Below are positions 27,632-43,802 of a stretch of 64,000 bases of DNA, piece after piece. The stretch is from NCBI GenBank assembly GCA_041659805.1, contig JBAZXP010000001.1, positions 64,589 to 128,588 on the forward strand, read 5' to 3'. The position numbers were made by a program, and so were the translations under genes. The notes below the pieces were generated by a model. That model did not search any database. It had not been told where the DNA came from and saw only the letters and a list, made by a program, of their open reading frames with translations. Source of the stretch: Microgenomates group bacterium (GTDB lineage: Bacteria > Patescibacteriota > Microgenomatia > Daviesbacterales > UBA10151). Positions within the stretch are counted from its first letter, which is position 1. Each line of letters begins with the position of its first letter.

Positions 27632-27748
27632 TCCGGCAATGACATATTGTCCCGGGGCCTTTCGACCCTAGTATCGTCGGCGCTGCAATCTTTGACTGCT
27701 GAGTTCGGGATGGGATCAGGTCGTTCGGTTGCGCTCAAATCACCGGAC
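27632..27748 (-). rRNA. rrf: 5S ribosomal RNA
   Basis: Reverse complement reads TCCGGTGATTTGAGCGCAACCGAACGACCTGATCCCATCCCGAACTCAGCAGTCAAAG...AGCGCCGACGATACTAGGGTCGAAAGGCCCCGGGACAATATGTCATTGCCGGA. Conserved CCCATCCCGAACTCAG and AGCGCCGA.G.TACT blocks with helix I pairing. Confidence 0.8.
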
Positions 27749-27824
27749 ATCTATAATACCAAATTTTGCTCTAAGAATCAAGGATCTAGACATGCCAAAT
27801 CAAATTATATAAAATATCCTCCTA

Positions 27825-28142
27825 ATGCCGAATAAGGAAGTTTACAGCCCGCTACTTGATGCCGTTCTAAAACAAGTAGGAGCAATAGAAAATGACGTGA
27901 CATACTATGACTTCTATGATAATAGTATCCATGGGCGTGGGGAAAAAAAATTACTCAGTCTTGATCTTCCGTCAGGAGACATGCTTTTAGTATACTATCC
28001 ACCAGCATATTACGGTGCCAGTCTGGTTGGGAAAGACCCCATACTTTATTATCCCACTAAACTTGCTGACCAAATTCATGCAACAATAGCCAGTGTTGAT
28101 AAAGAACACGAGTTTTCCGCCCGAAGATACGACTTCTATTAA
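27825..28142 (+). CDS. hypothetical protein
   Basis: 105-aa ORF with a Tyr-rich composition and no motif. Confidence 0.3.
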   Translation: MPNKEVYSPLLDAVLKQVGAIENDVTYYDFYDNSIHGRGEKKLLSLDLPSGDMLLVYYPPAYYGASLVGKDPILYYPTKLADQIHATIASVDKEHEFSARRYDFY

Positions 28143-28147
28143 TTAGA

Positions 28148-29245
28148 TTAAGTTTCTGAAGGCTTAAAGAGCCCCTGACCTAAAACATACCAAAACATGA
28201 CTAAAACAGCTACGCTCAAAGGATTAAAACACAAAGCATATATTAACCCAATTAACAAAGCTAACATAAACCTATTATCTGAAGCTAAAAAGTGATAAAC
28301 AGAGATAATCAGGATCCAGAGAAAAAGAAGAACACCTAAAATCCCCCCTTGAACCCAAAAATCTAAGAATATATTATGACTGCTATCAACTATCTGATAT
28401 TGCACATTATTATTTAGCTGCTTGGCACTTTTAGCCAAAGAGCTTTGAACATTACCAAATCCATTACCATAAATCGGAGAAGACCAACCTGCATGGTATG
28501 CTGTCTGCCAAATCTCTGCCCTGTTTTCAAACCACCCTCCGCCCTCAATAAATGGGAACGATAAGCTGGCTACAATAAGCAGAAAGCCTATAATTGAGGT
28601 TTTTTTAACCTCTAGTAAAAGGTTTTGACTCAGTATTATATATATAATCGTTACAAAAAATGCAAAAAGTCCAGACCTGCTTCCGGATAATAGTATTAAC
28701 TCTAAACAAACAATTAATGAAACTATCCAGTATTTCCACCGGTTTCTGAAAAAGACGCAGGTAAAGAAAAAAATGGCAACAGCAGCTAAAGAATTCGGTT
28801 CTCCCAAAGTTCCCACTGCCCTACCGTTTAAGGTAGCCCCAAAAATAAATCCAATTAAGGCCAAAGTTAAAAGCATTGAAAGAAATAAAAAATAGAAGAA
28901 GCCGTTTAGCTTCATTACATTAATTTGGGAAGAAAGAATGGCAAAAACAATCAAATGCCAGACTAAAAAAACACCCTGGAGTCTGAAAATGTTACCGAAA
29001 AACAACTTAAAATCAGGATTAATAATCAGAGTGCTGAATGTGAGTAAAAAAAGCAAAATAAAAGGTAAAACAACCCAGCTTTTAAGCTTCTTTAAGTGAT
29101 TAGAAAAAAGGCTCACAAGGAGTAAAGCTTCCACCCCAACCTCTACCCCAATCACTTTGGGAATCTCGAAAAATGAAGTTCCGAACGGAAACACAAAAAA
29201 AGGAAGAAAGAAAACCAAGGCTAAAATAATTTGACGGGCATTCAC
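28148..29245 (-). CDS. polytopic membrane protein, possibly O-antigen ligase (Wzy_C)-like
   Basis: 365 aa with about 10 TM helices. The pattern GSRSGLFAF..TIIY resembles the O-antigen ligase core. Assignment is tentative. Confidence 0.35.
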   Translation of the reverse strand: MNARQIILALVFFLPFFVFPFGTSFFEIPKVIGVEVGVEALLLVSLFSNHLKKLKSWVVLPFILLFLLTFSTLIINPDFKLFFGNIFRLQGVFLVWHLIVFAILSSQINVMKLNGFFYFLFLSMLLTLALIGFIFGATLNGRAVGTLGEPNSLAAVAIFFFTCVFFRNRWKYWIVSLIVCLELILLSGSRSGLFAFFVTIIYIILSQNLLLEVKKTSIIGFLLIVASLSFPFIEGGGWFENRAEIWQTAYHAGWSSPIYGNGFGNVQSSLAKSAKQLNNNVQYQIVDSSHNIFLDFWVQGGILGVLLFLWILIISVYHFLASDNRFMLALLIGLIYALCFNPLSVAVLVMFWYVLGQGLFKPSET

Positions 29246-29278
29246 TAATATTATATTAGCAAAAAGTACAGGTTTAGG

Positions 29279-40663: not shown

Positions 40664-40702
40664 TCTATATTTCGCCCGCACCTCTGAATTTTTCTTCAAA
40701 AT

Positions 40703-41029
40703 TTATTCTACTTTGGAATTAGGATCGTTTGGGTTGGGCACTTTATAAAGAGGATGTTCTTTTTCAGTTACATCAGGCCGTTTCCCAAACAACATCATTC
40801 CTAATTTACCTAATAACGACATTGTTTTTGTAGACTCTGGTGTAACAACTTCCGTATTTTCTTTTTTATGAGGGTCTATTCCTAATATACCTCTTTCAGT
40901 GTAAGGTGATCCTTTTTCGGGATAATCACCTTGTTTAAACCATTTCCCTAATATCCCTTCATCTTCGAGTATTTGCCCCTTCGGTTTTTCAACATTTTTT
41001 ATCTCCCCTATCTCAGTGTTGCTTTCCAT
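40703..41029 (-). CDS. hypothetical small protein
   Basis: 108-aa ORF in the region between the 16S 3' end and the LAGLIDADG gene. No motif. Confidence 0.3.
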   Translation of the reverse strand: MESNTEIGEIKNVEKPKGQILEDEGILGKWFKQGDYPEKGSPYTERGILGIDPHKKENTEVVTPESTKTMSLLGKLGMMLFGKRPDVTEKEHPLYKVPNPNDPNSKVE

Positions 41030-41419
41030 GTTTTCATCTTACACTATTTTAAAAAATCCATCAAAAAAACTCCCCGGAGGGAGCTTAAGAAAGACTATAG
41101 TCTTGAGCGAGTCAAGACGAGTCGAAAGATTTAATTCCAAAAAAGTGGTGGGGAGGGTTTTTAAAGAAGCCCTCAACTTCTATCACCATTTACCCTGAAT
41201 TTTGTTCAGAATAGCGTGAAGGTGATCTTGGATCAAACCATGGCTATCATCTCTTGCGAGTTTAATGAAATCCTCCAGCTTGACCTAATCTCCAGAAAGG
41301 AGGTGATCCATCCCCAGCTTCGGCTAGGGATACCTTGTTACGACTTAAGCTTCATCGCTGGTTTCACCTTCCTCCGTAATCACGGAGTTCGGGTGCCCCC
41401 AACTTTGCTGCCTTGACGG

Positions 41420-42292
41420 ATTGGAATAACTTAAGGTTGTTTTCCGTTCCCACCCGGCGAGCCGATTTCCGGCACCGGGCGAGCCCTAATGATGCATTAA
41501 TGCTTTTAAATTTCGAATCTTAGTTTCTCCCTCTAAAGTAAAGTGTTCTTTTTTAATGATCATTTTTGAAACTTGAGAAAAAATCTCAAAATCTCTTTTC
41601 TTCTTGGGACTAAGGAGTTGATGCTTATCAAAAAAATCAATCAATTTTAACTTATCTTCGTTCGAGTTTACCTCAAAACGATAACAAGATTGGTGATTTT
41701 TTCTCTTCTCTTTTTGATAATAAATAAAACCAAATCCTAAGTACTTTTTAATAGTTTCTAAAACTAATAAATCATCTTCACGAAGTTTTATATAAAAATG
41801 AGACTTCGCCATAATGTGTGCTTTTGGGTTTTTTGTTTTATCCCTCTCTGTTAAAAGAATATAAAAACATCCTTCTCCATCACTAAGACCAACTATATAG
41901 CTTGCATCTATCATTAGGTAGTTCCCTTCATCACCGCAGCGTAGTATTTTCAGTATAAACTGAACCTAAAACACTGTCAATAACTACTATGAAACTGCTG
42001 ACTTCCTACCAAGCAATTACCTTCTTCTTAGTAGGATCTCCATGGGTTATATATATCACTGTTCCAAACATTCCATTAAAGTTCTTAGACTAATTTGTTA
42101 AGTTTCTCTCAAACCGCCCGATGAGATCACTTATTAAAAGAACTCTTTTTAAAAATGGACTGTTTTTTGTCTCAGGCCCTCCAGCTAAATCAATTACTCA
42201 ATCTAGCCTGCCAATTTTTTTTGACTATCCACCATTGGTGGAGTAGGATTTTAACCTACTAGTTATATATACTGCCACGCGCGCATAAATTT
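41420..42292 (-). mobile_element. insertion (putative group I intron) in 16S rRNA at ~E. coli 1402/1403, carrying a LAGLIDADG homing endonuclease gene
   Basis: Exon junction reconstructs ...CTTGTACACACCGC|CCGTCAAGG... The interrupting ~870 nt contains ORF 41486..41914 in the same orientation as the rRNA. Confidence 0.65.
41486..41914 (-). CDS. single-motif LAGLIDADG homing endonuclease encoded inside the 16S insertion
   Basis: MIDASYIVGLSDGEGCFYIL is the LAGLIDADG motif (GFxDGEGCF type). 142 aa, typical of the I-CreI-like family. Confidence 0.75.
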   Translation of the reverse strand: MIDASYIVGLSDGEGCFYILLTERDKTKNPKAHIMAKSHFYIKLREDDLLVLETIKKYLGFGFIYYQKEKRKNHQSCYRFEVNSNEDKLKLIDFFDKHQLLSPKKKRDFEIFSQVSKMIIKKEHFTLEGETKIRNLKALMHH

Positions 42293-43802
42293 GCGGTGTG
42301 TACAAGAGGCGAGAACGTATTCACCGCGACCTGCTGATTCGCGATTACTAGCAATTCCGACTTCATGAGGTCGAATTTCAGACCTCAATCTGAACTGGGG
42401 CGAAATTTGAGAGATTAGCTTGCCGTTACCGACTTGCAACTCGTTGTTTTTCGCCATTGTAGGGTGTGTGTAGCCCAGGGTGTAAGAGCCGTGCTGACTT
42501 GACGTCATCCGCGCCTTCCTCCCCTCAAAGAGGGGCAGTTCCGCATGAATTATTTAACATACGGTGCGGGTTGCGCTCGTTATCCGACTTAACGGTACAG
42601 CTCACGCCACGAGCTGACGACAGCCATGCAGCATCTGTGCTAGTCTCCTTGCGGATTTTCCCAGTTTCTTGGGAATAGAACTCTAGCATGTCAAACCCTG
42701 GTGAGGTTTTTCGCTTTGTCTCGAATTAAACCACACGCTCCACTGCTTGTGCGCCTCCCCGTCAATTCCTTTGAGTTTTAAACTTGCGTTCGTACTCCCC
42801 AGGCGCTCTGCTTAACGCGTTAGCTTCGACACTGATCCGAAAGGACCAATATCTAGCAGAGATCGTTTACGGCTTGGACTACGCAGGTCTCTAATCTGCT
42901 TCGCTCCCCAAGCTTTCGTGCCTAAGCGTCAAGAATACACCAGATGTCTGACTACTCCTTCGGCGTTCCCGATCATATCAACACATTTCACTGCTCCATG
43001 ATCAGTTCCAACATCCTATTGTATCTTCCAGGCCGATCATATTTTGCCCGAAACCGTGGTTGAGCCACGGGCTTTCAAGCAAAATGCATCGGTCCGCCTA
43101 CGCAACACTTTACGCCCAATAAATCCGGATAACGCTTGCACCCTACGTATTACCGAGGCTTCTGGCACGTAGTTAGCAGGTGCTTATTCTTGTGGTACCG
43201 TCATAATCTTCCCACATAAAAGGAGTTTACAACCCGAGGGCCTTCAATCCTCCACGCGGCGTCGCTCGATCAGGCTTTCGCCCATTGTCGAATATTCCCA
43301 GTTGCTGCCACCCGTAGGTGTATGGGCCGTTCTCAGTCCCATTGTGGCTGACCATCCTCTCAGACCAGCTATCCGTCGTCGCCTTGGTAGGCCATTACCC
43401 CACCAACAAGCTGATAGAACGCGGGCTAATCTCAAAGCGCATTGCTGCTTTACTCTTACGAGCACATGGGAGATTACCCAACCTTTCGGCTGGCTATATC
43501 CCACTTCGAGGTATATTCCCACGCATTACTCACCCGTCCGCCGGTTATCTTGCGATCCCCTTGACTTGCATGCTTAAGGCACGCCGCCAGCGTTCATCCT
43601 GAGCCAGGATCAAACTCTCAATAAAAGTGAATTTGTATCCAGCTCCACTAATAAATCAATGAAGCTTTCAACAAGCTTCACTCAAAGAATTGACAAAAGA
43701 TTATCTCAATAAATTGAGATTGCACTCTTGTTTATCGATTTACCTAGACTTGGTAAATCATTTTCCCACCACTTTTCCGGAATTAAACGCCTAAAAAGGC
43801 AT

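Follow-up and report, generated by a model that had tools for sequence, protein, structure and literature searches.

Dispersed rRNA genes and clade-wide pgk/gap synteny in a Candidatus Daviesbacteria genome

The 64,000-nucleotide (nt) stretch analyzed here (the window; assembly GCA_041659805.1, contig JBAZXP010000001.1, positions 64,589 to 128,588) contains the single ribosomal RNA (rRNA) gene set of an uncultured Candidatus Daviesbacteria bacterium, a member of the Microgenomates within the candidate phyla radiation (CPR, or Patescibacteria). Its 16S, 23S and 5S rRNA genes keep the order and common strand of an ordinary rRNA operon and are separated by kilobases of DNA carrying protein-coding and transfer RNA (tRNA) genes, among them the glycolytic genes pgk and gap. 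According to the comparison with relatives, the core split, in which pgk and gap separate tRNA-Ile from tRNA-Ala, is old and conserved in Daviesbacteria and at least some Curtissbacteria. Only some of the inserts are recent: a free-standing LAGLIDADG_3 gene, open reading frames (ORFs) of 108, 118 and 424 amino acids (aa), the intron of the 16S gene and the genes of the 23S-5S spacer. The layout as such is already reported for the CPR and represents real, conserved and mostly ordinary, expected biology. The new elements are the clade-wide pgk/gap synteny and a replacement tRNA-Ile gene nested in a broken older copy.

Results and discussion

Gene order of the rRNA cluster

The window was searched with Rfam at gathering thresholds and its tRNA genes were named with ARAGORN. 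One 16S (41297-43625), one 23S (30629-34429; 3,801 nt including two introns) and one 5S rRNA gene (27631-27747; 70.4 bits) were found, all on the minus strand. The 16S gene consists of two exons, 43625-42293 and 41419-41297, giving 1,456 nt when spliced. Its Rfam match covers the 5' part only (42234-43625, minus strand); BLAST against E. coli rrsB places the end of this body at E. coli C1402, which is window position 42293, and the 3' motifs AAGTCGTAACAAGGTA and GGATCACCTCCT are present at 41331-41346 and 41298-41309 (minus strand). The 16S and 23S genes are 6,867 nt apart, the 23S and 5S genes 2,881 nt. A preliminary description, made from the sequence alone, had presented the three rRNA genes as unlinked on the minus strand, with 16S (41.3-43.6 kb) and 23S (30.6-34.4 kb) about 7 kb apart, and these positions bear it out. 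It was equally right in placing a tRNA-Ala just upstream of the 23S gene, since tRNA-Ala(TGC) lies at 34736-34811 on the minus strand, 306 nt away, and in placing the 5S gene some 3 kb past the 23S gene behind three protein genes, which are three minus-strand ORFs accompanied by a 105-aa ORF on the plus strand.

The 16S-23S spacer holds seven protein ORFs, three tRNA genes and tRNA fragments. The LAGLIDADG gene, the opposite-strand tRNA-Ile, pgk and gap of the preliminary description are all there, but the hypothetical genes are four rather than three and a tRNA-Cys had been missed. Both tRNA-Ile(GAT) (39639-39711) and tRNA-Cys(GCA) (39816-39890) are on the plus strand, opposite to the rRNA genes and tRNA-Ala, and the canonical order 16S-(tRNA-Ile, tRNA-Ala)-23S-5S is kept. 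With 6,867 nt and protein ORFs, the spacer departs from the canonical short type (at most 1,500 bp with tRNA genes only); its length and antisense genes correspond to the unlinked rRNA genes defined by Brewer et al. and to type D of Lui et al., and the 23S-5S separation noted by the latter authors is also present, with three to four ORFs in 2,881 nt. Plus-strand GC skew is negative over almost the entire window (1-64000) and the cumulative skew declines steadily with no turning point; the rRNA genes are thus on the G-rich, presumably leading, strand.

The nearest relatives, identified by a GAPDH protein scan over one genome per GTDB species, are Candidatus Daviesbacteria, the nearest species representative being a Daviesbacteria metagenome-assembled genome (L007) with 88% identical GAPDH and 98% identical 16S rRNA. 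In addition, the 424-aa ORF of the window has a 100% identical NCBI protein in a Microgenomates metagenome-assembled genome. Ribosomal RNA genes are notorious places for short-read metagenome assemblies to break or to be joined, and the preliminary description had named a mis-assembly joining separate loci at this point as the finding that would overturn it. This did not hold. The exact GAPDH protein is also encoded on independently assembled contigs of other samples. One of them (L002, 13.7 kb, from another sample and another assembler) displays the same junctions with all exons 100% identical, in the order 16S with its intron, 108-aa ORF, LAGLIDADG_3 gene, tRNA-Cys, tRNA-Ile, pgk, gap, three ORFs, tRNA-Ala and 23S. 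Another contig (L003), assembled from a different sequencing run, covers gap and the adjoining ORFs, and the same order recurs in over 15 further genomes at species level, one of them the complete chromosome CP066688. Because the independent assembly L002 has the identical order, a mis-assembly or chimera is excluded, its probability being practically nil.

An old split shared by Daviesbacteria and Curtissbacteria

The rRNA exons, proteins and tRNAs of the window were mapped onto 80 gap-anchored loci. In 18 of them, a same-strand tRNA-Ala follows gap at a distance of at most 6 kb, and 13 of these 18 also show a 23S gene within the fetched flank. In eight loci, those with enough upstream flank (L007, L010, L014, L015, L020, L022, L027 and L028), the upstream sequence contains a same-strand 16S gene with tRNA-Cys, tRNA-Ile and pgk behind it. 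Beyond the 23S gene, where the sequence reaches, come the 5S gene, a pilin-like gene and rpsA. All the syntenic loci encode a GAPDH at least 60% identical to that of the window, and those with a name are Daviesbacteria or Curtissbacteria; the synteny extends to about 60% GAPDH and about 77% 16S identity, in a Curtissbacteria locus (L022). In more distant CPR (WWE3, Uhrbacteria, Blackburnbacteria) and in other phyla, gap is directly followed by pgk, and no rRNA gene was found within 10 kb of gap among those sampled, except in one locus (L067) with a 16S gene about 8 kb downstream of gap. In Daviesbacteria and Curtissbacteria, pgk is upstream of gap, the two often lying up to about 5 kb apart (loci L007-L086). 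Since the split is shared by loci of both groups with at least 60% identical GAPDH, it would be old rather than a recent breakage private to this genome. The comparison with related genomes proposed in the preliminary description thus yielded a canonical order that is retained and a core that is split clade-wide.

Relatives also preserve intermediate states in the distance of the 5S gene, the orientation of tRNA-Ile and the presence or absence of introns. The 23S-5S spacer differs in each species examined. It measures 254 nt in L027; in L014 it is about 1.0 kb long and contains a pilin-like ORF, in L007 it reaches 1.35 kb and contains a 306-aa ORF in antisense that bears a CxxxCxxC motif, and in the window it extends over 2.9 kb with three to four genes. 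The tRNA-Ile gene is on the rRNA strand in seven loci (L010, L014, L015, L019, L020, L027 and L093) and flipped in the window, L007, L022 and L028. Because the order of tRNA-Cys and tRNA-Ile is constant among relatives while all four combinations of their orientations occur, the flip is not one block inversion; single tRNA modules flip or are replaced in place. The preliminary reading of an ancestral operon broken apart by insertions and an inversion is therefore supported by the intermediate states, with the refinement that the inversion concerns single tRNA modules rather than one block.

Putative transcription units

Each of the three rRNA genes is preceded by a conserved promoter-like site of its own. 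A strict pattern (TTGAC-N, 16-18 nt, TAnnnT), whose background in these loci is 0.04 per 300 nt per strand, occurs 284-377 nt upstream of the 16S gene in all four genomes covering the region (window, L007, L027, L028). In the window it corresponds to TTGACA-17-TAAAAT at 43974-44002 (minus strand), with 11 of 12 matches, 377 nt upstream of the 16S 5' end. The consensus match before tRNA-Ala and 23S, TTGACA-17-TAAAAT with a TG (35049-35077, minus strand), has counterparts of the same strict pattern, in the form TTGAC(A/T)-N17/18-TA(A/T)A(C/A)T, located 160-266 nt upstream of tRNA-Ala in 16 of the 16 genomes examined, and the leader downstream of it displays blocks that are, by eye, conserved across the clade. 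For the 5S gene, TTGATT-17-TATTAT with a TG (27753-27781, minus strand) places the end of its -10 hexamer 6 nt before the 5S 5' end; a looser TTG-type pattern ending 6 nt before the mature 5S end is found in 4/4 genomes (window, L007, L014, L027), including L027, which keeps it with a 5S gene merely 254 nt from its 23S gene.

Terminator-like hairpins followed by a T-run are present after the 16S and 5S genes. The former is GC-rich, lies at 41067-41086 (minus strand), 211 nt past the 16S 3' end, and has comparable hairpins 175-232 nt past 16S in five of nine genomes (window, L007, L010, L027, L028). The latter (27594-27622, minus strand) starts 9 nt past the 5S 3' end, and similar hairpins occur in three of four genomes, at 9 nt in the window, 7 nt in L007 and 99 nt in L014. 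In the 16S leader, the 12-mer GCACATTAACAA (43836-43847, minus strand) is exactly conserved in the window, L007 and L027 and reads GCACTTTAACAA in L028; it resembles the E. coli boxA (GCUCUUUAACAA). A pattern search of the 23S leader gave boxA-like counts at chance level.

Candidate processing stems, defined by inverted repeats and shared motifs since RNAduplex applied to whole flanks was too permissive to inform, enclose the 16S and 23S genes separately. The 16S arms, 43765-43787 and 41130-41152 (minus strand), pair over 23 nt with 91% complementarity, and their sequences AAAAGTGGTGGG / CCCACCACTTTT recur in L007, L027 and L028; the 23S arms, 34629-34656 and 30580-30607 (minus strand), pair over 28 nt with 86% complementarity and recur in L007, L014 and L027. 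The tRNA-Ala gene remains outside the 23S stem, as in ordinary operons. Moreover, four genes between the putative units are antisense to the rRNA genes, namely tRNA-Cys, tRNA-Ile, the LAGLIDADG_3 gene and a 216-aa ORF. Owing to these conserved promoter-like sites proper to each rRNA gene, the terminator-like hairpins of 16S and 5S, the separate stems and the antisense spacer genes, the rRNA genes probably form three separate transcription units and are functionally uncoupled.

Origin of the arrangement

We consider it highly probable that an ancestral operon was uncoupled into three self-contained units with order and strand kept, and that its spacers were filled thereafter. Under this explanation, an ancestral 16S-tRNA-Ile-tRNA-Ala-23S-5S operon would have become one unit comprising a promoter, a boxA-like leader, the 16S gene within its own processing stem and a terminator; another with a promoter, a conserved leader, tRNA-Ala and the 23S gene within its own stem; and a last one with a promoter abutting the 5S gene and a terminator behind it. 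This uncoupling would have let both spacers accept DNA. An ancestor common to the Daviesbacteria and at least some of the Curtissbacteria sampled would have captured pgk and gap in the interval from tRNA-Ile to tRNA-Ala, where they would have stayed since, and the other inserts (hypothetical genes, the LAGLIDADG_3 gene, the cell-surface genes of the 23S-5S spacer, and rRNA introns, whether or not they carry LAGLIDADG genes) would turn over between species or strains, with tRNA-Cys and tRNA-Ile flipping and being replaced locally.

Several observations weigh against it, some of which would suit a single giant operon, in which a boxA-modified polymerase starting at the 16S promoter would read via pgk and gap to 23S and 5S and thereby make the expression of two glycolytic genes depend on rRNA synthesis. 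The proposed promoters and terminators are consensus matches only, and a sigma-70-like specificity is assumed for the CPR. A terminator-like hairpin with a T-run lies inside the 16S leader itself (43808-43837), between the promoter-like site and the gene, and would fit the model only given antitermination or transcription from another start. A search downstream of the 23S gene of the window revealed no terminator-like site, and no convincing or consistent conserved promoter was found upstream of pgk among the relatives compared; several genomes display weak promoter-like sites 35-42 nt before gap. The clade-wide colinearity of the rRNA genes, pgk, gap and tRNA-Ala on one strand is equally what a long read-through transcript would need, and the conserved boxA-like element of the 16S leader fits it too. 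Such a transcript would nonetheless have to pass the hairpin after 16S and the four antisense genes, and the strong promoter-like sites conserved before tRNA-Ala and 5S and the separate stems of 16S and 23S also speak against it, so that we regard it as quite unlikely. The block is, furthermore, not universal: some Curtissbacteria and one Daviesbacteria (L021, L028, L047) have no 23S gene within 10 kb of gap, the block being in these genomes either wider or lost.

A recent disruption of a normal operon, private to this genome and driven by homing endonucleases, would agree with the absence of the LAGLIDADG_3 gene, of the 108-, 118- and 424-aa ORFs and of the 16S intron from the nearest species (L007), and with introns that differ even among near-identical strains. 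The pgk/gap split and the multi-kilobase 16S-23S distance are however shared by genomes with only about 77% identical 16S and about 60% identical GAPDH, across which the separate promoter-like sites are conserved as well, making this scenario very unlikely. The uncoupling of an ancestral operon with subsequent filling of its spacers remains the explanation that we favor.

A tRNA-Ile nested in a broken older copy

Alignment of window positions 39475-39960 with L007, in which the older tRNA-Ile is intact, uncovered its remains in the window at 39535-39795 (plus strand), in the form of an 18-nt 5' piece (39535-39552) and a 40-nt 3' piece (39756-39795). They are separated by a 203-nt insert (39553-39755) which replaces 15 nt of the older gene and carries a complete tRNA-Ile(GAT). 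Positions 7-65 of this inner tRNA are identical to the old gene and two pairs of its acceptor stem are changed in a compensatory manner, giving a functional-looking GGGCCGG/CCGGCCC stem. The inner gene is flanked by a perfect 12-nt inverted repeat, TTTTGAAAGCAT / ATGCTTTCAAAA. From these alignments, the live tRNA-Ile is a replacement copy, as judged by its sequence, nested in a broken older one. The same nested structure is present in L002. It is also found, on the rRNA strand, at 1234-1550 of a metagenome contig whose pgk is 81% identical (L093), where the 3' piece of the broken gene holds a further insertion of about 60 nt.

The possibility that the 203-nt insert is a repeated mobile element was examined and set aside, as it occurs once in the window and has no match in the 80 related loci. 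Scanning metagenomes with the 20-nt hairpin of the insert retrieved 30 loci, of which one (L093) is a true relative and 29 are unrelated palindromic hairpins. In these 29 unrelated contigs (loci L087-L116 scanned), the palindrome GATCCCGATTTATCGGGATC is usually the core of longer perfect intergenic hairpins, which suggests that it is a widespread hairpin motif.

Another tRNA remnant, a 40-nt tRNA-Ala-like relic (GGGCCCATGGATCAGTGCGTAAGCGCGAGACATGGGACCA), is located at 34829-34868 (minus strand), with 17 nt between it and the real tRNA-Ala downstream. Both of its ends look like the acceptor arms of tRNA-Ala, except for an A replacing U70, and the relic lies inside an insertion of about 105 nt that L007 does not have.

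Introns of the 16S and 23S genes

The two LAGLIDADG genes of the window were assigned by Pfam, in agreement with the homing endonucleases of the preliminary description, but one of them sits within the 16S gene and two introns of the 23S gene had been overlooked. The 16S insertion (41420-42292, minus strand; 873 nt) lies between E. coli C1402 and C1403, with the junction ACACCGC / 873 nt / CCGTCAAGG in the alignment with intron-less relatives, and it was not found in L007, L014, L022, L027 or L028. It was not recognised as group I, the Rfam group I model giving no match at E<=0.01 and a permissive scan returning group II D1-D4 alone, with a score of 19.9 bits that is below the gathering threshold of 35, just upstream of the ORF. 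Two hairpins can be folded from the last 66 nt, one of them domain V-like (10 bp, 2-nt bulge, 4 bp) and the other domain VI-like, with an A bulging out at 7 nt from the 3' junction; the 5' end reads AAAUUU... and not the GUGYG of group II introns. We thus refer to it as a group-II-like intron on the grounds of these predicted folds. It contains a single-domain LAGLIDADG_1 ORF of 142 aa (41486-41914, minus strand; PF00961, E=6.6e-18). A near-consensus promoter-like site, TTGACA-17-TATACT (41952-41980, minus strand), is located 37 nt upstream of its start codon and suggests that this gene may have its own promoter. In the 5' exon, the site of the 515F primer (43085-43106, minus strand) reads GTGCCAGAAGCCTCGGTAA instead of GTGCCAGCAGCCGCGGTAA, a paired change.

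Among the 23S introns, the one at E. coli position 1951/1952 (31980-32387, minus strand; 408 nt, no ORF) matches the Rfam group I model RF00028 with 58.1 bits (gathering threshold 50), its boundaries being set from the intron-less L019 and from E. coli. The other follows E. coli U2500 (31013-31456, minus strand; 444 nt) and is group-I-like, with 34.5 bits, below the threshold of 50; its boundaries, derived by comparison with L014 and L019, which do not have this intron, would allow a U preceding the 5' splice site and a G as the last nucleotide. No recognisable endonuclease ORF was found in either 23S intron of the window. Splicing would be expected to produce the junctions GGTA/AGTTCAGACC and GGCACCT/CGATGTCGG. 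Octamer repeats of TCTGATTN fill the peripheral parts of the U2500 intron (31071-31321, minus strand) and recur in the 23S leader (34467-34510, minus strand); between 31077-31143 of this intron and 34444-34510 of the leader, complementarity amounts to 73% over 67 nt.

Intron content varies among relatives and strains. A LAGLIDADG gene occupies the 23S 1951 site in L014 and L027. In the contig L002, the 23S gene contains one more intron, of about 706 nt (12818-13523), which encodes a 153-aa LAGLIDADG_1 protein and interrupts the sarcin-ricin loop behind A2657 (CTCTAGTA/CGAGAGG); the window does not have it (about position 30855). Since the rRNA exons are otherwise 100% identical, this is a within-population intron polymorphism. 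Altogether, this patchy presence and absence at fixed sites among relatives and strains would fit a mobility of the LAGLIDADG genes, and the turnover of introns and endonucleases is already documented for the CPR.

Protein genes of the spacers

Protein families were assigned by Pfam. The gap gene (glyceraldehyde-3-phosphate dehydrogenase; PF00044 and PF02800) is at 37414-38433 and pgk (phosphoglycerate kinase; PF00162, E=1.4e-76) at 38506-39474, both on the minus strand. The latter encodes a short 322-aa form, the pgk of relatives aligning over similar lengths; phosphoglycerate kinases of the Daviesbacteria/Curtissbacteria clade are short in general (about 322-339 aa).

The free-standing LAGLIDADG_3 gene (39869-40663, plus strand, probable start 39938; PF14528, E=9.3e-9) encodes the two motifs LGFIFADGA and IRGYFDGDG, lies directly downstream of tRNA-Cys and is called as 241 aa in L002. 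A 33% identical homologue occupies the same position in L027 (7102-7779), a distant Daviesbacteria locus, and none is present in the closer relatives L007 and L014. A link between this gene and a particular tRNA-Cys allele was considered and rejected, since the tRNA-Cys of L027, which has the gene, and of L007, which does not, are 93% identical; the allele of the window is the outlier in this comparison.

The four remaining ORFs of the 16S-23S spacer have no family match in Pfam. The 108-aa ORF (40703-41029, minus strand), the 118-aa ORF (36343-36699, minus strand) and the 424-aa ORF (35061-36335, minus strand; adjoining tRNA-Ala) are all missing from L007, the latter two being lineage-specific, and the 216-aa ORF (36763-37413, plus strand) has a 66% identical copy in that species. 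The 424-aa ORF has eight homologues only, the distant ones away from rRNA genes, and for this reason it was dropped as a synteny anchor and gap was used instead. In the 23S-5S spacer, a 153-aa hypothetical protein (30051-30512), an fn3 protein (29279-30037) and a Wzy_C O-antigen-ligase-like protein (28148-29245) are encoded on the minus strand and the 105-aa ORF (27825-28142) on the plus strand.

Comparison with known rRNA clusters

Unlinked rRNA genes have been reported as typical of Patescibacteria (Brewer et al., 10.1101/705046), the mean 16S-23S spacer of complete genomes being about 0.42 kb according to the same study. They were found in 27 of 34 circularised CPR genomes by Lui et al. (2021, PMC8172020), who also noted spacers with protein and homing endonuclease genes, the separation of 23S and 5S, and 16S-23S distances of 2.9-9 kb in Microgenomatia. 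The window resembles these clusters in its 16S-23S distance, far above the cut-offs of 1,500 bp (Brewer) and 2,000 bp (Lui), in the protein-coding, opposite-strand and homing endonuclease genes of its spacer and in its distant 5S gene. Both studies, however, classify by distance and strand and leave the identity of the spacer genes unreported, and neither reports a clade-wide pgk/gap block or separate conserved rRNA promoters. Our literature search found neither the identity of captured spacer genes and their clade-wide conservation, nor conserved separate rRNA promoters, including a 5S promoter abutting the mature 5' end, nor a nested tRNA-Ile.

The closest design is that of Candidatus Chazhemtobacterium aquaticus Ch65, another Microgenomates member, which has a single cluster 16S-trnI(GAU)-two protein genes-trnA(UGC)-23S-5S and a LAGLIDADG intron in its 23S gene (Kadnikov et al. 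2020, PMC7143001). It differs from the window in belonging to the order UBA1400, in a 16S gene without insertion and in its two spacer genes, left unnamed in that publication, as compared to about nine genes in the window spacer and a 5S gene 2.9 kb away. In the CPR intron survey of Tsurumaki et al. (2024, PMC11270868), class 16IS9 designates group-II-like, LAGLIDADG_1-bearing insertions at position 1400 of 16S, a site and cargo matched by the 16S insertion of the window (about 1400, single-domain LAGLIDADG_1); the 23S 1951/1952 site and the 2657 site of L002 are likewise listed there for LAGLIDADG_1. In contrast, the U2500 intron matches no site among those quoted from that paper, both 23S introns of the window are without an endonuclease ORF, and LAGLIDADG_3 is free-standing next to tRNA-Cys in the window but found only inside 16S insertions in the survey. 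Compared with the canonical E. coli rrnB operon, the window shares the gene order, the common strand, spacer tRNA-Ile and tRNA-Ala genes, a boxA-like leader and leader-trailer stems, and differs by its 6.9- and 2.9-kb spacers with protein and antisense genes, by promoter-like sites for each rRNA gene and by introns in the rRNA genes.

Conclusions

The findings do not overturn current views of CPR genomes. It is conceivable, though in our opinion unlikely, that the block is maintained by selection rather than being a neutral relic, the expression or dosage of pgk and gap following ribosome synthesis. Two lower-glycolysis genes of fermentative bacteria with minimal genomes, one of them ATP-yielding, would then be held within the rRNA cluster, and coupled to it either by gene dosage near a highly transcribed leading-strand locus or by partial read-through of a boxA-modified polymerase. 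In the linked and equally doubtful proposal of tRNA-cassette insertion, the flipping and replacement of tRNAs would be due to an undescribed small cassette entering a resident tRNA gene and bringing its own copy, as exemplified by the nested tRNA-Ile at 39535-39795 and by the same module on the other strand in L093.

The 873-nt 16S intron, the variant 515F site and the 16S-23S distance of about 7 kb mean that this lineage will be missed or wrongly treated by amplicon surveys and by those that span the operon; in particular, standard V4 primers would mismatch at that site, which reads GTGCCAGAAGCCTCGGTAA. The conserved promoter-like motifs represent concrete and testable candidate start sites, and the clade-wide position of pgk and gap might be used to recognise Daviesbacteria and Curtissbacteria by synteny. 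The cluster thus provides a well-resolved example of an rRNA operon coming apart while its gene order stays.

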